DNA of 10,134 bases from an uncultured archaeon. GTDB taxonomy: Archaea > Iainarchaeota > Iainarchaeia > Iainarchaeales > CSSED10-239. Shown piece by piece: positions 182 through 9,481 of the stretch; the first letter of the stretch is position 1; each line of letters begins with the position of its first letter. The position numbers and the translations under genes were made by a program. The notes under the pieces were generated by a model, which was given only the letters and a program-made list of their open reading frames with translations, was not told the origin of the DNA and ran no database searches. The stretch covers positions 1-10,134 of the forward strand of contig CAYXAY010000026.1 of assembly GCA_964463155.1 (NCBI GenBank), written 5' to 3'.

Positions 182-205
182 ATTGAATTTCCTCCTATAT
201 TTTAT

Positions 206-226
206 AGCCGCGAAGCGGCTTTTTTT
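206..226 (+). other. GC-rich hairpin AGCCGC-GAA-GCGGCT followed by a T-run; candidate IS200/IS605 left-end subterminal hairpin or intrinsic-terminator-like insulator upstream of the tnpA-like start
   Basis: A perfect 6-bp stem (206..211 with 215..220) carries a 3-nt loop and is followed by T6 at 221..226. It is a conspicuous GC island in AT-rich spacer, 25 nt upstream of the tnpA-like ATG on the other strand. Confidence 0.35.
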
Positions 227-253
227 ATAGGAGTAATAGTAGAAATAGTTTAA

Positions 254-446: not shown

Positions 447-1550
447 TTATTTATTCTTCAAATAGTTTTTTAAAAAATCCTTTTGAAACTTCTCAAAGGT
501 TCCTTCTTCTATTGTGTTTCTAGAGTCTTCCATTAAACGATGAATAAATCTAACATTGTGCTCAGACAACAGAATCTTTACTGTTGGCTCATCAAGCCTG
601 TAAAGGTGATGAAGATAAGCTATTGTGTGATGCTTACAAGCATAACAATCACATTCTTTTTCTATTGGCTTGAACAGGTGCGCATTATAACTTTTCCCAA
701 TCTTTAAAATTCCATTTCTTGTAAAAATCATGCCGTGTCTTGCCATCTTTGTTGGATAGATAGAATCAAAGCAATCTACTCCTTTACCAATTGAAATTAT
801 CATGTCTTCAGGAGAACCAACACCCATGAGATATTTTATCTTGTAGTTATCAAGATACTCTAAAGAAAAATCAATTGCTTTATACATCTTTTCCTTTTCT
901 TCGCCTATGGCTAGCCCCCCAATGGCTAGCCCATCAAAATCCATGTCGTTGATTGCTAAAGCACATTCTTTTCTTAAATCTTTGTAGGTTCCACCTTGAA
1001 CTATACCAAACACTTTTTGCTTTTTGTTCTTGTGCTCATCAAGACATCTTTTTGCCCAAGCAATTGTTCTTGTTGTGGCAACTTGAAATTCTTTCTTTGT
1101 ATGATCTGGGCCAAGGACATGGTCAAGGACCATGGCAATGTCTGAGCCAATAATATTTTGGTTTTCCATAAGATTCTCAGGAGAAATGAAATGAATGTCT
1201 CCTGAAAATGGACATCTAAACCTTACTCCCTTGTCATTAAGAGAAATTAGAAACTGAGGGTCAAGAAGTTGAAAGCCCCCAGAGTCTGTAAATATTGGTT
1301 TTTTCCAGTTTATGAAATTATGATAACCATTAGCCTTCTTGATGGTATCAAGGCCTGGTTTTAAATAAAGAAGATAAGCATTTGAAATAAAACATTGAGT
1401 CTTAACATTTTCAAGAACATCAAAAGTAAGAAATTTACCTGCGCCTTTAGTGACAACGGGCATGTAAAAAGGCGTTTTAATCTTGCCATGACTTGTCTTT
1501 AATTCGCCACATCTTGCACCTTGAGATTTATCAGTAATTTTAAATGTCAT
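447..1550 (-). CDS. tgt: tRNA-guanine transglycosylase, bacterial/eukaryotic (queuine/preQ1) type, catalytic TIM-barrel only
   Basis: The 367-aa ORF starts with ATG. It is collinear with bacterial Tgt over its full length. Matching blocks are TPFYMPVVTKG, FTDSGGFQ, AMVLDHV, GIVQGGTY, FDGLAIGGLAIGEEK, YLMGVGSPEDM and GVDCFDSIYPTKMARHG. The zinc motif is CDCYACKHHTIAYLHHL. Confidence 0.9.
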   Translation of the reverse strand: MTFKITDKSQGARCGELKTSHGKIKTPFYMPVVTKGAGKFLTFDVLENVKTQCFISNAYLLYLKPGLDTIKKANGYHNFINWKKPIFTDSGGFQLLDPQFLISLNDKGVRFRCPFSGDIHFISPENLMENQNIIGSDIAMVLDHVLGPDHTKKEFQVATTRTIAWAKRCLDEHKNKKQKVFGIVQGGTYKDLRKECALAINDMDFDGLAIGGLAIGEEKEKMYKAIDFSLEYLDNYKIKYLMGVGSPEDMIISIGKGVDCFDSIYPTKMARHGMIFTRNGILKIGKSYNAHLFKPIEKECDCYACKHHTIAYLHHLYRLDEPTVKILLSEHNVRFIHRLMEDSRNTIEEGTFEKFQKDFLKNYLKNK

Positions 1551-3925: not shown

Positions 3926-3936
3926 AAAAAACAAAT
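3926..3936 (-). terminator. Oligo-T tract (minus strand ATTTGTTTTTT) at the stop of the 81-aa ORF; left copy of an 11-nt direct repeat
   Basis: The plus strand reads AAAAAACAAAT at 3926..3936. Archaeal termination commonly uses oligo-T runs. An identical 11-mer occurs at 5571..5581. Confidence 0.3.
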
Positions 3937-4181
3937 TATTTAATAAAAATTGTTTTAATTTTCCCGTTAGAATTTTTAAATGATACATTTAATTTCCCGC
4001 AGTCTATCCTTTTAGAATTTGGGTCAATTGGCTTTGATTGGTCTGTGGCAATCTTTTCTTCTTCAGTAATGTTACTGCTTGAACTAAAGCTTGAACTAAA
4101 ACTGGTATTAATAATTGGAGACACCACCCCTAACACTAAAATAAAAAACACTATGCTTAATATTAATGTTTTTGAATTCAT
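3936..4181 (-). CDS. Small hypothetical secreted or membrane-anchored protein (81 aa)
   Basis: ATG at 4181 is preceded by GAGGT-N5 and a TTTATATAA TATA-like box. The N-terminus MNSKTLILSIVFFILVLGVVSP is a hydrophobic signal or anchor. A Ser-rich linker (SFSSSFSSSS) follows, then a ~45-aa charged C-terminal part with a single Cys. I recognise no family. Confidence 0.5.
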   Translation of the reverse strand: MNSKTLILSIVFFILVLGVVSPIINTSFSSSFSSSSNITEEEKIATDQSKPIDPNSKRIDCGKLNVSFKNSNGKIKTIFIK

Positions 4182-4247
4182 AGTTTACCTCTTATATAAA
4201 TATTTTTGTAGGCTAGAAATGCTTTTAAAGAAGTAGTTTAAAATAAA

Positions 4248-5333
4248 TCAATATTTATTTAAAATCACTTTTAAATGATTTATAAAATTTTCTGTGTCTA
4301 AAAAGTAATTCGGATATGCTTTTTTAAGATCTTGCACATTGTCTGCAGAAACTAAAACAACATCATACCCAATTTTATTGTATATTTTCTTTTCGGCATC
4401 AGAGTATGCGATTAATGCTTTTTCTTCTTCTAATTTAGTAAATGCAGACACCGTTAATTTGTCAATATTTGTGTCTAATTCTAAAAGATAAAAATACCTG
4501 TTCTTTTTTTGTTTAAAATTATCAAAATATTTAAGTGATTTCGTCCATTGAGTCATTTTTTGTACAACTTGTAATTCTTTTTCCTTTTCTTTAATTTGCA
4601 AATAAAGTTCTTTTTCATTTTGTGGTGTTTGAGAAACAATTGGAGAATTTTCCATTCTTGCAAATGCCGAACTTACTAATCTAAAGAAAATTTCCCAATT
4701 TTCTTCTCCTTGATTGGATTTTATTGCTTGTTTTGTAAAAAAATCAACGGTCTCTACTGCTGTTGCCCATAGATGTTGTAATTTAGATCTTATTTGTACT
4801 TCAACTAATAGATCATTATATTCTTTTTTTCCTTTATCACTATTATATCTATACACTAAATGTATGCTTCTATAACCATCTAATTTTGGGCTAGCAATAT
4901 AATCTTTTACATTTACTTTTTTGTGTTTAAGGTCTCCATTACGATAATATTTATCATATAATGTTCTTACTTGTTTTGTGTTGGACATTATTACTCTACA
5001 ACCTGCAATGTCTTGCATTTGCGTTAACTTCATCGTTGGTTTGTTATCGTAATATTCTCTGTTAAGTTTTTTTAGTATTGAAGAAATCCTTTTTAATCTT
5101 TGAGCAGACAACGCATTTTTATTAATTTTTTGAGAAACTCTTTTTAATCGATTATTAAATACTTGTAAGGGGTGGCTATGCATTGCTTTCCAATAATTTA
5201 CAATCCCTAATGCTGCATCTATTTCGACAGTTGAATGTTTATTATTATCTAATAAAATTATTGCAGCAGTATTTATCTTTGATTTTGAGAGTTCTTTAAT
5301 TTTTTGTTGTTCCATAATACTGTATAGAAGCAT
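4248..5333 (-). CDS. RelA/SpoT-homologue (RSH) synthetase-fold nucleotide pyrophosphokinase, small-alarmone-synthetase/toxSAS-like, with an uncharacterised C-terminal domain
   Basis: The 361-aa ORF carries the canonical synthetase motifs: R79-L-K81-R-I-S84-S-I-L-K88-K89, D108-IAGCR, DGY154-RSIH158, and E178-VQIRS-KLQH-LWA. Residues ~206..361 match no motif I recognise and have no Cys/His cluster. They end in KKAYPNYFLDTENF. No SD precedes the start. A TATA-like box directly abuts the first ATG, so the second ATG at 5315 (MEQQKIKEL) on a leaderless mRNA is a plausible true start. Confidence 0.85.
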   Translation of the reverse strand: MLLYSIMEQQKIKELSKSKINTAAIILLDNNKHSTVEIDAALGIVNYWKAMHSHPLQVFNNRLKRVSQKINKNALSAQRLKRISSILKKLNREYYDNKPTMKLTQMQDIAGCRVIMSNTKQVRTLYDKYYRNGDLKHKKVNVKDYIASPKLDGYRSIHLVYRYNSDKGKKEYNDLLVEVQIRSKLQHLWATAVETVDFFTKQAIKSNQGEENWEIFFRLVSSAFARMENSPIVSQTPQNEKELYLQIKEKEKELQVVQKMTQWTKSLKYFDNFKQKKNRYFYLLELDTNIDKLTVSAFTKLEEEKALIAYSDAEKKIYNKIGYDVVLVSADNVQDLKKAYPNYFLDTENFINHLKVILNKY

Positions 5334-5350
5334 AAATTTTTTAAATATAT
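5334..5350 (-). promoter_or_regulatory. TATA-like box (minus strand ATATATTTAAAAAATTT) immediately upstream of the RSH gene
   Basis: The A/T box centre lies roughly 26 nt upstream of the second in-frame ATG (5315). This fits an archaeal promoter driving a leaderless transcript. The background is AT-rich, so specificity is low. Confidence 0.25.
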
Positions 5351-5351
5351 C

Positions 5352-5395
5352 AATTTGCGCGGTTTCAAATTAATTTTTGTGTTTAATTGCGCGGT
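5352..5395. promoter_or_regulatory. Two TTGCGCGGT boxes 32 nt apart upstream of the RSH gene; candidate operator sites
   Basis: TTGCGCGGT occurs at 5355..5363 and 5387..5395. The first is embedded in the inverted repeat AATTTG(5352..5357)-CGCGGTTT-CAAATT(5366..5371). These are GC islands in a very AT-rich spacer, positioned just upstream of the TATA-like box. Confidence 0.3.
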
Positions 5396-5494
5396 AAAAA
5401 TATAGATTATTATTTGTCTGTAAATCCTTTGTTTATGAATATTCTACACAAATTAATCAACACAATCTACAAAAATACTAAAAAAAGATCTGAC

Positions 5495-5510
5495 ATTGCG
5501 CGTATACAAT
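5495..5510. promoter_or_regulatory. Third TTGCGCG box within the inverted repeat ATTG-CGCGTATA-CAAT
   Basis: ATTG (5495..5498), CGCG (5499..5502), TATA (5503..5506) and CAAT (5507..5510) give the same arm-CGCG-N4-arm architecture as the 5352..5371 site. Confidence 0.25.
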
Positions 5511-5570
5511 TAAAAGAAAATTTTATTTTTTTGGGAAAATTGTGCCAAAAAAATAAGAGAAAGAGAATTT

Positions 5571-5581
5571 AAAAAACAAAT
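5571..5581 (-). terminator. Oligo-T tract (minus strand ATTTGTTTTTT) 9 nt after the ftsY stop; right copy of the 11-nt direct repeat
   Basis: The plus strand reads AAAAAACAAAT at 5571..5581. A second minus-strand T7 lies at 5547..5553. Confidence 0.35.
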
Positions 5582-5589
5582 GGTTAAGT

Positions 5590-6954
5590 TTAGACAACAA
5601 CTCTATCAATTATGAACTGAGGAGAGAATGCTTCTAGGGCATCATAGGTTTGACCTGTGCCAACATAGAAGATTGGTTTTTTTAATTCATTTAAAATTGA
5701 GATTGCTACCCCCCCTTTAGGGTCGGTGTCAATCTTTGTTAAGATTACTCCATCAACACCAATCTCTTTTTCAAAACCAGATACTTGATTAACAATTGCT
5801 TGGCCTGCTTGTGCTTCGCCTATATAGATTGTAAGATTTGGGTTAACTACCCTTTTGATTTTCTTAAGCTCTTGCATTAAATTGTTATTGGTTTCTTGTC
5901 TTCCAGCAGTATCAATAAACACATAATCAATCTTTCCGGCCTTTGCTGAAGTCACAGCATCAAAGGCAACAGCTGCTGGATCTGAACCATAGTTTTGTTT
6001 GATTATTTTTACACCAATGGTGTTAGCGTGCTTCTCAAGCTGGTCTATGCTTCCTGCTCTAAAGGTGTCTCCTGATGCTAAGATTACCGATTTTCCTTTT
6101 TGTTTGTGTTGGTAAGCAAACTTAGAAATTGTTGTTGTCTTTCCTGCGCCGTTTGGGCCAATAAACATTATTACAAATGGTTGTTCTGCTTTTTTTGTCT
6201 TTGTTATATAATTATTAATATCACAATCAATGTCTAGCTGTGTCTTTAATGATTCTCTAATATGTTCTTTTATGTCTTCAAGCGGATTATCTTTAGAAAA
6301 GCTTGCAGAAACTAGTTTTTCTTTTAAATCATTACAGATGTTTTCTGCTGACACTATTGAAACATCGGCCTCAAGTAAAGACAATTGAAATTCTTCAAGG
6401 AAATATGAGATTTCCTTCTCTGATAATTTGATTTTATTTGTAAAAATGCTTTTAATTGAAGTTACAAAAGATTTTTTTATTTCTGTTGATTTCTTTACTG
6501 TGAGATCTTCAGATCCGGTTTCGCTCAGCTCGTGCACAATAGGTTGTGTTGGTCTTTGCTCTAGCTTTGGTATTGGTCTTTCTTCTGTTTCTGGTTGTTT
6601 TGGTGTTGGGCGTTCTTCAATCTTTGGAACTGGTCTCTCTTCTACTGATGGCTGATGCTTTGGCTTAGGTTTAAAGATTTCAAAAATAGAATGTTTCTCT
6701 TTTACTGGTTCGTGTGCAACACTTTTTTCTTCAACAACTGGTTTTGGTTCTTCAATAATTGGTTGAGAAACTGCTTCTTCTAGTTGTCCAAGATTTAGTG
6801 AATCGGTTTCGCCCAAATCAAACAAATCGCTTTGCGATTTCTTGGTACCCTGAGAACCTTCGGTTGGCATGAGCTCGCGCGCAATTGTTTCTTGAGTTTT
6901 ACCAAATAGCTTATCTGTAAAGCTCTTGAATTTATTTTTTAATAAATCAAACAT
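5590..6954 (-). CDS. ftsY: Signal recognition particle receptor FtsY with a long acidic/Pro-rich N-terminal A-domain
   Basis: The NG domain carries GPNGAGKTTTISKFA, DTFRAGSIDQL, DTAGR and TKIDTDPKGG. The track ORF starts at a TTG (6969). The ATG at 6954 (MFDLLKNKFKSF) is preceded by GAGGA-N8 and is the more likely start. Confidence 0.95.
   Translation of the reverse strand: MFDLLKNKFKSFTDKLFGKTQETIARELMPTEGSQGTKKSQSDLFDLGETDSLNLGQLEEAVSQPIIEEPKPVVEEKSVAHEPVKEKHSIFEIFKPKPKHQPSVEERPVPKIEERPTPKQPETEERPIPKLEQRPTQPIVHELSETGSEDLTVKKSTEIKKSFVTSIKSIFTNKIKLSEKEISYFLEEFQLSLLEADVSIVSAENICNDLKEKLVSASFSKDNPLEDIKEHIRESLKTQLDIDCDINNYITKTKKAEQPFVIMFIGPNGAGKTTTISKFAYQHKQKGKSVILASGDTFRAGSIDQLEKHANTIGVKIIKQNYGSDPAAVAFDAVTSAKAGKIDYVFIDTAGRQETNNNLMQELKKIKRVVNPNLTIYIGEAQAGQAIVNQVSGFEKEIGVDGVILTKIDTDPKGGVAISILNELKKPIFYVGTGQTYDALEAFSPQFIIDRVVV
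6541..6642 (-). repeat. In-frame tandem peptide repeats in the FtsY A-domain
   Basis: Reverse translation of 6642..6541 gives EERPVPK-I-EERPTPK-QPET-EERPIPK-L-EQRPTQP, four copies of an E(E/Q)RPxPK-like unit. Confidence 0.7.
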
Positions 6955-8167: not shown

Positions 8168-8596
8168 CTATTCTGTTTGTATTGGAGCCATCTTCTTTTC
8201 TGTTTTTGGGCTCATTTTCTTTTGTGTCTTTGCGCTTGGCTTTTTTGCTTGTGTTGCTTCTTTTACTGTTTTTGAAATAGTTTCTTTTAACTTTGGTTTT
8301 TCCGTTGTCTCTGGAGCCTTTCCAAACTCCTTAAAGCCTTTAGAGCCCTTCAAGAAAACATAAACCTTCCCTGAATCAATCTTTATGCTTACTGCAATCT
8401 TTCTGGGAGGGTTTTGAATGCTGTTTTTCCAGATATATTCGTTTACCTCTTTTGAAATTATCACATCTTTCTTTTCCATTCTTGTGTGTTTCTTTAGGAA
8501 ATTAAAGATTTCAGTGATTGCATGGTTTGCTCTTCTGGTTCTTGGCTTGTTGTCATAAACCTTGTTTAAAGGTATTATATAATTTTCACTTGGCAT
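8168..8596 (-). CDS. rpl31e: 50S ribosomal protein L31e with a Lys-rich C-terminal extension
   Basis: The L31e core is IPLNKVYDNKPRTRRANHAITEIFNFLKKHTR...EVNEYIWKNSIQNPPRKIAVSI. It is followed by about 55 extra K/T/E/P-rich residues. Confidence 0.85.
   Translation of the reverse strand: MPSENYIIPLNKVYDNKPRTRRANHAITEIFNFLKKHTRMEKKDVIISKEVNEYIWKNSIQNPPRKIAVSIKIDSGKVYVFLKGSKGFKEFGKAPETTEKPKLKETISKTVKEATQAKKPSAKTQKKMSPKTEKKMAPIQTE
8184..8231 (-). repeat. 24-nt tandem duplication inside the L31e tail (KTQKKMSP / KTEKKMAP)
   Basis: GGAGCCATCTTCTTTTCTGTTTTT (8184..8207) and GGGCTCATTTTCTTTTGTGTCTTT (8208..8231) match at 17 of 24 positions by my hand count. They encode two consecutive 8-aa repeats. 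Confidence 0.6.
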
Positions 8597-8609: not shown

Positions 8610-8927
8610 TTATTTTTTCTTTTTCTTTGGATGTCTTACAACTGTTGTGTTTCTTGTCTTTCTTACTTTTCTTCTTGAGCTCTTTTCTTTCTTACCACTC
8701 ACTCTTGCAGTTTTCTTTACTGCGTCTGCTTTTTGCAATTGTAATTTCCGGAATTGATCTCCAAACTCTGTTTGTTTCCAGTTTCTTTTCTGTCTTCTGT
8801 TCCAGATTCTTTTTCCTGCCTTTTGGATAATCCAAACAGGAGTATTTAGATACCCTGGACCTACTTTGTCTCTTTGAGCAATTAGAAACTCTTTCTTTTC
8901 TCTAGTTTTATTTCTTGCCATAATCAT
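8610..8927 (-). CDS. rpl39e: 50S ribosomal protein L39e with a ~50-aa basic C-terminal extension
   Basis: The L39e core is MARNKTREKKEFLIAQRDK...TPVWIIQKAGKRIWNRRQKRNWKQTEF. ATGs occur at 8927 (ATGA overlap with the S19e stop, GGAGG upstream) and at 8921 (MARNK). The protein is about twice the usual ~50-aa L39e length. Confidence 0.8.
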   Translation of the reverse strand: MIMARNKTREKKEFLIAQRDKVGPGYLNTPVWIIQKAGKRIWNRRQKRNWKQTEFGDQFRKLQLQKADAVKKTARVSGKKEKSSRRKVRKTRNTTVVRHPKKKKK

Positions 8928-9481
8928 TCAGCCTCCTCTTGCTTTTTCTTGGAGTCTTTTTTTCCTTTCTTTTCTGTGCCATCAAATACTAGCTTTTCTT
9001 TTGTTTCTTTTATTATTTCTTTGTCTTTCTTAACAATCTTGTATTTACCCAGATCCTTTAATATTTCTGTTGCCATCTTGTCTAAGTATTTCTGGCCTGC
9101 AGGAGTTATTATTCTCCCTTTCTTTTCTTCTGACTTTGATACCAAACCTAGTTTTTCTAAATCTTGTAAGCAAACTCTTATGATTTTTCCACCTGCTTTT
9201 CTAAATTCTTCAGGTTTTACCCCCCTGTTCTTTCTTCCACCATAATATGTTCTTAAAGAATTAACTGTTGTCTTGTCATTAATTGCTACTTTTCTTAAGA
9301 TTGAAGCCATTCTAACATACCACCAGTCAAGATCTTGTGGGGCTCTTTCTCTACTACAGCCGGTTTTTACAAACTCCGCAAACTCAGGCATCTTTACTTT
9401 CTTGTTTGTTTTTAGATCCTTTGATATCTCAGTTATCATTATCTGAGCAGGGACGTCTTTTACATTAGCCAAATTATTCAC
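8924..9481 (-). CDS. rps19e: 30S ribosomal protein S19e
   Basis: Core blocks are VKDVPAQIMITEISKDLK, ERAPQDLDWWYVRMASILRKV, YGGRKNRGVKPEEFRKAGGKIIRVCLQDLEKLGLV, followed by a Lys-rich tail. The track start is a GTG (9481) lying inside a GAGGTGA motif. A TTG at 9472, 5 nt after that motif, would give M-ANVKDVP and may be the real start. Confidence 0.9.
   Translation of the reverse strand: MNNLANVKDVPAQIMITEISKDLKTNKKVKMPEFAEFVKTGCSRERAPQDLDWWYVRMASILRKVAINDKTTVNSLRTYYGGRKNRGVKPEEFRKAGGKIIRVCLQDLEKLGLVSKSEEKKGRIITPAGQKYLDKMATEILKDLGKYKIVKKDKEIIKETKEKLVFDGTEKKGKKDSKKKQEEAE

Follow-up and report, generated by a model that had tools for sequence, protein, structure and literature searches.

Background

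CapRel is among the best-understood cases in which an immune sensor of a prokaryote recognizes a viral protein directly, and to our knowledge all descriptions of it so far concern bacteria and their phages. In archaea, enzymes of the RelA/SpoT homologue (RSH) and toxSAS types are considered rare exceptions. The DPANN archaea and the bacteria of the candidate phyla radiation (CPR) have tiny genomes, few CRISPR or restriction-modification (RM) systems and almost no known viruses. Here we describe an RSH gene in a 10,134-nucleotide stretch of DNA from an uncultured archaeon (GenBank assembly GCA_964463155.1, contig CAYXAY010000026.1); this stretch is called the window, and statements at the scale of the window cover all of its 10 kb. 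We read the gene, with a probability of about 0.7, as a fused toxSAS toxin-antitoxin of the CapRel family, in which a viral protein would free a C-terminal lid and thereby allow pyrophosphorylation of the CCA end of tRNA.

In CapRel(SJ46), substitutions in the YXXY motif or at the interface make the protein constitutively toxic, and the Y155A substitution inactivates it (PMC9712102). The pseudo-zinc-finger domain (pZFD) of this protein consists of a three-stranded antiparallel sheet, with a helix between strands 2 and 3 and two helices following, and in the characterised CapRels it is the most variable part (PMC9712102). Neutralisation at the donor site by a YXXY element is coupled to the tRNA-targeting toxSAS enzymes (PMC11782079). 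RSH surveys give capRel as a bacterial gene and describe the occurrence of RSHs in archaea as sporadic. CapRel is not mentioned in a survey of archaeal immunity from 2026, which reports that DPANN archaea are enriched in single-gene phage defence candidates (PDCs). We found no paper describing CapRel in archaea in the literature searched.

Identity and fold of the protein

The RSH gene is a 361-codon maximal open reading frame (ORF) on the minus strand, at 4248..5333, where the original prediction had placed it, and the four synthetase motif blocks then described were all found in the translation at the residues given: R79-L-K-R-I-S-S-I-L-K-K89, M-Q-D108-I-A-G-C-R113, G153-Y-R-S-I-H158 and E178-VQIRSKLQHLWA. 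The second ATG (M7, at nt 5315), and not that of the maximal ORF, is very probably the real start, because M7 is invariant in an alignment of 61 homologues, the homologues are 353-356 aa long, the database copy of the window protein has 355 aa, and in the sister locus L087 there is no ATG upstream of the M7 equivalent. The CapRel-family coding sequence would thus extend over 4248..5315 (minus strand), from the ATG at 5315-5313 to the TGA stop at 4248-4250.

An HMM search, which had been proposed as the first check, gave a significant match to Pfam RelA_SpoT (PF04607) over residues 78-191 (E=2.5e-19, 70 bits against a cut-off of 27), and this was the sole Pfam domain of the protein. In a phmmer search of the PDB the top match was CapRel(SJ46) (7ZTB/9ERV, E=8e-44; 8.3e-44 for chain A of 7ZTB, residues 14-352 on 14-364). 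The runner-up was RelQ, with E=1e-11 and over the catalytic core only. A structure model built with AlphaFold2 from the 61 homologues had a pLDDT of 83.8 and a pTM of 0.82, and the Foldseek comparison suggested earlier for the C-terminal region again put 7ZTB/9ERV first, over the full length of the model ('Salmonella tRNA pyrophosphokinase CapRel', E=1e-21, 357-360 columns, template modelling (TM) score 0.66-0.70). Despite this score, the global root mean square deviation between the model and the open crystal form of CapRel(SJ46) was 9.6 A. The hinge of the model (residues 331-350) had a lower pLDDT of 68-75.

Five segments can be delineated, all on the minus strand. The N-terminal helical region (residues 7-70, 5124..5315; predicted helices 9-14, 17-28, 35-50 and 53-70) is collinear with the N-terminus of CapRel(SJ46) in the phmmer alignment. 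It is followed by the toxSYNTH (RelA_SpoT) nucleotidyl/pyrophosphotransferase core (residues 71-205, 4719..5123), which is defined by PF04607, by the mapping onto CapRel(SJ46) and by invariance among the 61 sequences, and which holds R79 and R113 of the adenine/ATP-donor site, D108, the G-loop residue Y154 and E178. Connecting 'anchor' helices (residues 206-270, 4524..4718; predicted helices 211-227, 240-254 and 256-266) align to residues 214-273 of CapRel(SJ46). The pZFD, a putative sensor surface, occupies residues 271-332 (4338..4523), as judged from the predicted secondary structure and the Foldseek alignment to 7ZTB; it has strands at 281-287, 292-298 and 323-329 and a helix (300-317) between the second and third strands, and it is Cys-less, in line with the earlier remark that the C-terminal half has no Cys/His cluster. 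The C-terminal anchor/switch (residues 333-361, 4251..4337) is made up of helices 333-339 and 345-359, and the hinge between them carries the YXXY neutralisation motif Y340-P-N-Y343 (4305..4316), which is invariant in the clade and corresponds to Y352/Y355 of CapRel(SJ46).

The agreement extends to single residues. Going from CapRel(SJ46) to the window protein, the interface residue A77 corresponds to A77, R79 and R116 of the ATP/adenine site to R79 and R113, the catalytic D111 to D108, the G-loop Y155 to Y154, the interface scaffold residues V338/L339 to V326/L327, and the neutralisation motif A351-Y352-P-N-Y355 to A339-Y340-P-N-Y343; scaffold residue A341 is substituted (S329). The stretch K337-K338-A339-Y340-P341-N342-Y343-F344 is identical to K349-F356 of CapRel(SJ46). 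The mapped functional residues and E178 are invariant across the 61 homologues, in an alignment with a mean column identity of 74%. The two acidic residues noted as intact in the original prediction, D108 and E178, are thus among the invariant ones. AYPNYFLD, noted at the same time, is present at residues 339-346 but does not end the protein, as fifteen residues come after it.

Taking into account the toxSYNTH residues, the collinear homology, the pseudo-ZFD topology, the YXXY motif and the organization as a single ORF without an antitoxin gene, the window protein almost certainly belongs to the fused CapRel family, as far as homology and the structure model can tell. The original prediction had favoured a CapRel-like, auto-inhibited single-polypeptide toxSAS over a housekeeping synthetase; this preference is borne out, and the protein is a full-length homologue of CapRel(SJ46) rather than a mere analogue. 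Two other expectations have to be given up. Residues ~206-361, described as an unknown C-terminal domain, can be aligned to CapRel(SJ46), where they match its anchor helices, pseudo-ZFD and YXXY switch. What was taken for a sensor domain that might be new is the pseudo-ZFD already known, and its AYPNY neutralisation motif is identical.

Distribution and divergence of the family

The family is also less novel than had been implied, since it is already indexed in two collections and has thousands of database homologues. The PADLOC search proposed earlier gave a full-length match to the profile PDC-S33 (E=1.6e-113, residues 11-358 on profile positions 4-342 of 349), and the PHROG family phrog_4773 was matched over the full length as well (E=8e-96). 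The seeds of the PADLOC PDC models were genes located within BREX, DISARM or type I RM systems. No paper on PDC-S33 was found in the literature searched or in the text supplements of the archaeal immune survey.

When 8000 candidates from the protein database were scored, 4506 homologues were obtained, and the best 120 of these were all at least 60% identical to the window protein and nearly all 350-360 aa long. Among GTDB representatives, copies with 50-79% identity occur in Woese-, Nano-, Iain-, Aenigmat-, Micr- and Nanohaloarchaeota and in Methanoperedens, and copies with 30-49% identity in ordinary bacteria, in one Cenarchaeum metagenome-assembled genome (MAG) and on IMG/VR viral contigs. 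The IMG/VR relatives reach 31-44% identity at most, and BFVD gave partial matches to the catalytic core only. In a neighbour-joining tree, which is rough and carries no support values, the high-identity copies form one clade nested within the full-length diversity of bacteria and viruses, and the window sequence groups with Iainarchaeum-type sequences. By these sequence comparisons the window gene is a member of a large clade centred on DPANN archaea.

Labels of the deposited records proved unreliable, and context was therefore judged from flanking genes. At least three bacterial contexts were verified in this way: one with trigger factor, TsaD/TsaE, RuvC and type IV secretion system pilins on a ~950-kb contig (L006/L007/L015), one with the DNA polymerase III beta clamp (L025) and one with MutL and Sua5-TsaE (L032). 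Because clade members are found in these contexts, the exchange between DPANN archaea and CPR-type bacteria is real. The locus L043, labelled 'Patescibacteria group bacterium', is flanked by archaeal-type genes (Rpb3-type RpoD, S4 and DUF655), so either its label or its bin assignment is wrong. L043 (5797-7098) shares with L045 (2694-3994) a 1302-bp cassette, from -204 to +33, which is 94% identical at the nucleotide level and has unrelated flanks; a very recent cross-domain transfer between the two was considered and dropped, as the flanking genes mark both contigs as archaeal.

Domain-wise pairwise identities showed that the pZFD diverges fastest in every pair and that the YXXY anchor is conserved. 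Example values for the pZFD and toxSYNTH domains are 73 vs 87%, 55 vs 76%, 30 vs 53% and 10 vs 43%. The idea that the pZFD might be unusually conserved within the clade was discarded on these figures.

The cassette and its insertion site

In the window the CapRel gene lies between FtsY and SRP54. Comparison with an empty site in the related locus L089 indicates an accessory cassette of ~1.36 kb at 4229..5584 (minus strand; edges within about 10 nt), which comprises an upstream control region, the CapRel gene and a tail of about 20 nt. In L089, ATACACTTAT and then AAGCATTTCTAG come after the FtsY stop; in the window AAGCATTTCTAG stands after the CapRel stop. The insertion point is directly after the FtsY stop and before AAGCATTTCTAG, which forms the promoter region of a small ORF of the secreted type that is native to the spacer. 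The cassette has a GC content of 0.26, and the remainder of the window one of 0.33.

The relatives of the locus differ in whether they carry the gene. L087, with an SRP54 89% identical to that of the window and the same gene order, has a CapRel (78% identical) between FtsY and SRP54. L089/L090, with an SRP54 of 91% identity, have no CapRel there, and tblastn (E<=10) detected no CapRel remnants in their empty site. In L091 (SRP54 70% identical) the FtsY-SRP54 gap is also empty, with a spacer of 124 bp. L089/L090 are nearer to the window than L087 on 8 of the 9 flanking genes. Between L087 and the window the nine flanking genes are 63-89% identical, a range that includes the 78% of CapRel. As the gene is an accessory insertion missing from the closest relative, its position in a cluster of archaeal core genes, emphasized in the original prediction, says nothing about its function. 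Homologous recombination via the conserved flanking genes could account for presence and absence at this site.

Close homologues in unrelated contexts also behave as cassettes: DNA similarity begins at about -225 and stops at the stop codon. At 6 of 37 loci the cassette is bracketed by significant direct repeats of 31-151 nt (scores 22-118, against a shuffled maximum of <=16). The repeats differ in sequence from site to site and are 151, 87, 64, 47, 32 and 31 nt long in L013, L029, L009, L027, L008 and L010, respectively; they look like unusually long target duplications left by the insertion mechanism. At the cassette of the window no flanking direct or inverted repeat above chance was detected, only a weak 7-nt TAAACT(T/A), and no recombinase gene is present within the cassette.

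No conserved partner or antitoxin gene emerged from all-against-all clustering of the ORFs within 3 kb of the gene at 71 loci, where the only recurrences were duplicates of the same genomes, and none of the genes neighbouring it in the window is present, or recurs beside it, in these 71 related loci. This survey, which had been called for earlier, agrees with the description of the gene as without a partner; likewise, no HD hydrolase and no recognisable antitoxin was found in the 10 kb window, in keeping with the absence of both from the adjoining genes as first noted. One homologue adjoins AbiEii, RhuM and Schlafen/AlbA genes.

The small ORF downstream (81 aa; window 3936-4181, minus strand) is native to the FtsY-SRP54 spacer, with counterparts in L089 (4367-4588) and L087 (7706-7891). 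It has an N-terminal hydrophobic segment, a conserved C-terminal G-x-[IT]-K-x-[IL]-F-[IL]-K and no family match, a TATA-like box of its own, and GAGGT ahead of the ATG. It was considered as a partner of CapRel and rejected, as homologous small ORFs occupy the same spacer in L089, without CapRel, and are found in all three close relatives.

In L089 the FtsY-SRP54 slot is filled by overlapping genes of 89 and 59 aa (4813-5204, minus strand), with no Pfam or PHROG match. The same module is found downstream of TGT in L087 (11515-11903), where the two proteins are 90% and 81% identical, and paralogues of the 89-aa gene occur in L089 (12048-12308) and L024 (3660-3863). The module behaves like another small mobile cassette and may be a toxin-antitoxin pair.

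Upstream boxes and transcription signals

The TATA-like box of the gene, ATATATTTAAAAAA (5337..5350, minus strand), lies 22-35 nt ahead of the M7 ATG, a distance that implies a leaderless or near-leaderless mRNA. It is kept in L087, L008, L010 and L035 and is seen throughout the clade as TTTAAAnA / TTTATAnA. At the other end of the gene, an 18-nt inverted repeat and a T-rich run (TGATTTATTTT) around the stop codon (4231..4270, minus strand), identified by repeat search and in the sequence, represent a candidate transcription end. The TATA-like box, the lack of a Shine-Dalgarno sequence and the T-rich stretch that follows the stop had all been pointed out before, and all three observations hold.

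Upstream of the TATA-like box there is an array of GCGCAA boxes on the strand of the gene (minus), spanning 5352-5507. Box 1 (5355..5361, -45 from the ATG) abuts the TATA-like box, box 2 (5387..5393, -77) is 32 nt further upstream, and box 3 (5496..5502) is at -186. CGCGCAA occurs four times in the window against an expectation of 0.15, a number reached in 0 of 200 shuffles, and three of the four are upstream of CapRel on the gene's strand. The boxes recur at the same offsets in L008-L046, with the clade consensus aaccGCGCAAnttgAcat and with the proximal one adjoining a TTTAAAnA TATA-like box, often paired 32 nt apart and at times with a fourth at about -218. At least one box was present in 33 of 37 loci of the clade, and their density was 11.8 sites/kb upstream of the gene vs 0.19/kb elsewhere in the same loci, a 62-fold difference. 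No enrichment was seen at distant CapRel loci. Among the AT-rich loci, out of 1.0 Mb in total, paired boxes occurred upstream of CapRel and nowhere else, and within these loci a general promoter or regulon signal was ruled out.

The boxes are kept in the verified bacterial copies L015 and L025. In L032, in a Dojkabacteria context, they are lost, and a TGnTATAAT-like sequence ('gtggtataat') is present about 90 nt upstream of the CapRel gene, which suggests that another promoter took the place of the original one once the gene had entered a bacterium. An antisense ORF of 61 aa (5387-5572, plus strand) in the spacer upstream of the gene was rejected as a gene because it had no family match and no homologue in any locus; its TTG 'start' is the reverse of box 2.

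The box array is most simply read, from its sequence and position, as a promoter/operator carried by the cassette. Autoregulation by the CapRel protein itself is possible, and is an attractive idea because the cassette encodes a single protein. We also considered a bolder picture, in which the DPANN/CPR clade would be a self-regulating mobile immunity cassette that crosses the boundary between archaea and bacteria: the GCGCAA array would be an operator bound by CapRel, or a promoter firing in both domains, the insertion mechanism would duplicate 31-151 nt of target, and the sensor would see a viral protein of ultra-small episymbionts. Taken as a whole this combination is doubtful. If the operator were indeed bound by CapRel, this would be the first fused toxSAS with autoregulation, and the pZFD would play a part in DNA binding.

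Proposed mechanism and alternative explanations

In the mechanism that we propose on the model of CapRel(SJ46), the resting protein would have its C-terminal pseudo-ZFD folded back on the N-terminal toxSYNTH domain, with the hinge Y340-P-N-Y343 inserted between R79 and R113 and the ATP (pyrophosphate-donor) site blocked. During infection a newly made viral protein would bind the pseudo-ZFD/anchor surface and keep the enzyme open, and the open enzyme would transfer ATP's pyrophosphate to tRNA at its 3' CCA end. Aminoacylation and translation would stop, and the infection would be aborted. The closed conformation, the tRNA substrate, the viral trigger and the antiviral benefit are all points that we infer. 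Since the tRNA CCA end is universal, such a target would explain how near-identical copies could work in archaea and in bacteria. The mechanism is favoured by the full-length homology, the conservation of the mapped residues, the fold, the stand-alone gene, its accessory and mobile behaviour and the clade-specific box array.

Several observations weigh against it. The capsid-contact residues L280 and L307 of CapRel(SJ46) sit in insertions that are missing from the window protein, so the trigger cannot be transferred from CapRel(SJ46), to which identity is just 30-36%. No relatives of at least 45% identity were found on IMG/VR viral contigs. Just one of the sampled loci is visibly beside other defence genes, and the neighbours in the window are all housekeeping genes. 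The L087 copy, with its 78% identity, falls within the range of the neighbouring genes; the gene thus appears to have been retained since the common ancestor with L087, with a turnover below that of many defence genes.

Alternatively, the CapRel-type switch could serve addiction or persistence of the cassette as a selfish or conflict module, or it could answer a cue that is not viral, for instance a signal between host and symbiont or a protein induced by stress. In favour of this, the cassette is mobile and self-contained, its carriers are concentrated in the DPANN and CPR lineages, both of them episymbiotic, it is mostly outside recognisable defence islands, and its conserved operator-like boxes recall autoregulated type II toxin-antitoxin loci. 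A host protein, FtsZ, is reportedly involved in the activation of CapRel(Ebc) (PMC13423816). However, the characterised fused CapRels are all anti-phage, the family was recovered independently by its embedding among defence genes and is also a phage protein family (phrog_4773), and the pZFD is the fastest-evolving part, as would be expected of a sensor in an arms race. We consider a conflict module unlikely, and continue to prefer an antiviral CapRel.

A housekeeping or stress alarmone synthetase, which would produce (p)ppGpp or (pp)pApp as a signal and whose C-terminal domain would be a metabolic regulator, could also have a RelA_SpoT fold with an intact catalytic site, would not be out of place among translation and secretion genes, and would fit the retention since the L087 ancestor with a divergence like that of the neighbours. 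The profile scores argue otherwise. The protein reached 58 bits against the cut-off of 320 of the RelQ-type equivalog NF053588 (NCBIfam), and 29.8 bits against 499 with the long-RSH model TIGR00691, and it has no HD, TGS or ACT/RRM domains. Its best full-length match is the tRNA pyrophosphokinase CapRel, not RelQ/RelP, and the YXXY lock of the donor site is typical of tRNA-targeting toxSAS (PMC11782079). Vertical conservation alongside a hydrolase, a pattern that the original prediction had named as speaking against a toxin, was not what we observed: the relative that is closest by flanking genes (L089/L090) is without the gene, the genomic position is unrelated in the 71 other loci, and there is no hydrolase partner. 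Moreover, no stringent response is known from archaea (PMC3153485). An alarmone synthetase is accordingly very improbable. That the gene is a decaying or inactive relic of a horizontal acquisition is hardly credible: its low GC content and its absence from the closest relative would fit, but the gene has kept an intact frame, none of the catalytic and regulatory residues varies among the 61 homologues, and the promoter and box array are conserved.

Gene content and other features of the window

All genes of the window are on the minus strand. In the order of the coordinates they are TGT, an A24 prepilin-type peptidase, SRP54, the 81-aa small ORF, the RSH gene, FtsY, prefoldin, eIF6, L31e, a 105-aa ORF, S19e, an Rpr2-type RNase P subunit and tRNA-Gly, which was the only Rfam match in the window. 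The nearest named relatives of SRP54 are from 'Candidatus (I)ainarchaeum' and Diapherotrites MAGs (50-61% identity). Because the gene set is archaeal and SRP54 has these relatives, a DPANN-type (Iainarchaeum-like) archaeon is supported as the host by the sequence data, in agreement with the DPANN-type host proposed at the outset.

A few further features were noted. The TGT gene (447-1550, minus strand) codes for only 367 aa, with the Pfam TGT domain spanning residues 11-363; it presumably lacks the C-terminal PUA-containing extension that we take to be part of canonical archaeosine TGTs. In the AT-rich region downstream of TGT, at window ~205-235 (plus strand), a GC-rich hairpin is followed by a T run (AGCCGCGAAGCGGCTTTTTTT) and resembles an intrinsic terminator. 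The N-terminal region of FtsY (6500-6850) has a repeated EERP-x-PK motif. Long Lys/Glu-rich extensions past the Pfam domains are present at the C-termini of L31e (8168-8380) and S19e (8924-9060), and such an extension is found also in the 105-aa ORF (8610-8927), which occupies the usual position of L39e and is without Pfam support.

Significance and comparison with known systems

The CapRel family as such was already known; what is new is the DPANN-centred archaeal clade, the mobility of its cassette and the GCGCAA array. A full CapRel that retains the machinery for auto-inhibition is common among DPANN archaea, occurs also in Methanoperedens and has been exchanged with CPR bacteria, which makes it a candidate for a compact one-gene immune system of DPANN and CPR organisms. 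The distribution supports the idea that effectors pass freely between the domains if their target is universal, as the tRNA CCA end is. Searches for the trigger using this CapRel could help to identify viral proteins of DPANN and CPR hosts, and the box array and the long flanking duplications provide leads on how minimal cassettes are regulated and moved.

With respect to the more distant systems, RelQ and RelP (5DEC, 6EWZ) share with the window protein the catalytic RelA_SpoT core of about 120-190 residues (E=1e-11; Foldseek TM score 0.7 on the target), but they are tetrameric (p)ppGpp synthetases without the N-terminal extension, the pZFD or the YXXY motif. Housekeeping enzymes of this type have a single domain and about 200 aa, against 355 aa with additional regions at both ends in the window protein. 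PDC-S33 ('candidate') and phrog_4773 ('unknown function') index the full-length family, and neither ties it to CapRel or to archaea. In FaRel2/ATfaRel2 and PhRel/ATphRel, which target tRNA, the toxSYNTH domain is blocked at the ATP-donor site by a YXXY element of the pZFD type (PMC11782079, PMC7229694). There toxin and antitoxin are separate proteins that act in trans, whereas in the window protein the two are fused and would act in cis; the PDB search gave no sequence match to a bicistronic toxSAS at E<=1.

The closest described system is CapRel(SJ46) of the Salmonella prophage SJ46 (7ZTB, 9ERV; PMC9712102), which has the same end-to-end single-polypeptide architecture. The two have in common that there is no separate antitoxin gene and that the pZFD is the most variable part. 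In contrast to CapRel(SJ46), the host of the window gene is an archaeon, the gene is not on any recognisable prophage, and the loops bearing L280 and L307 are missing from its product. The window gene resides instead on a minimal cassette of ~1.3 kb with a clade-specific GCGCAA array.

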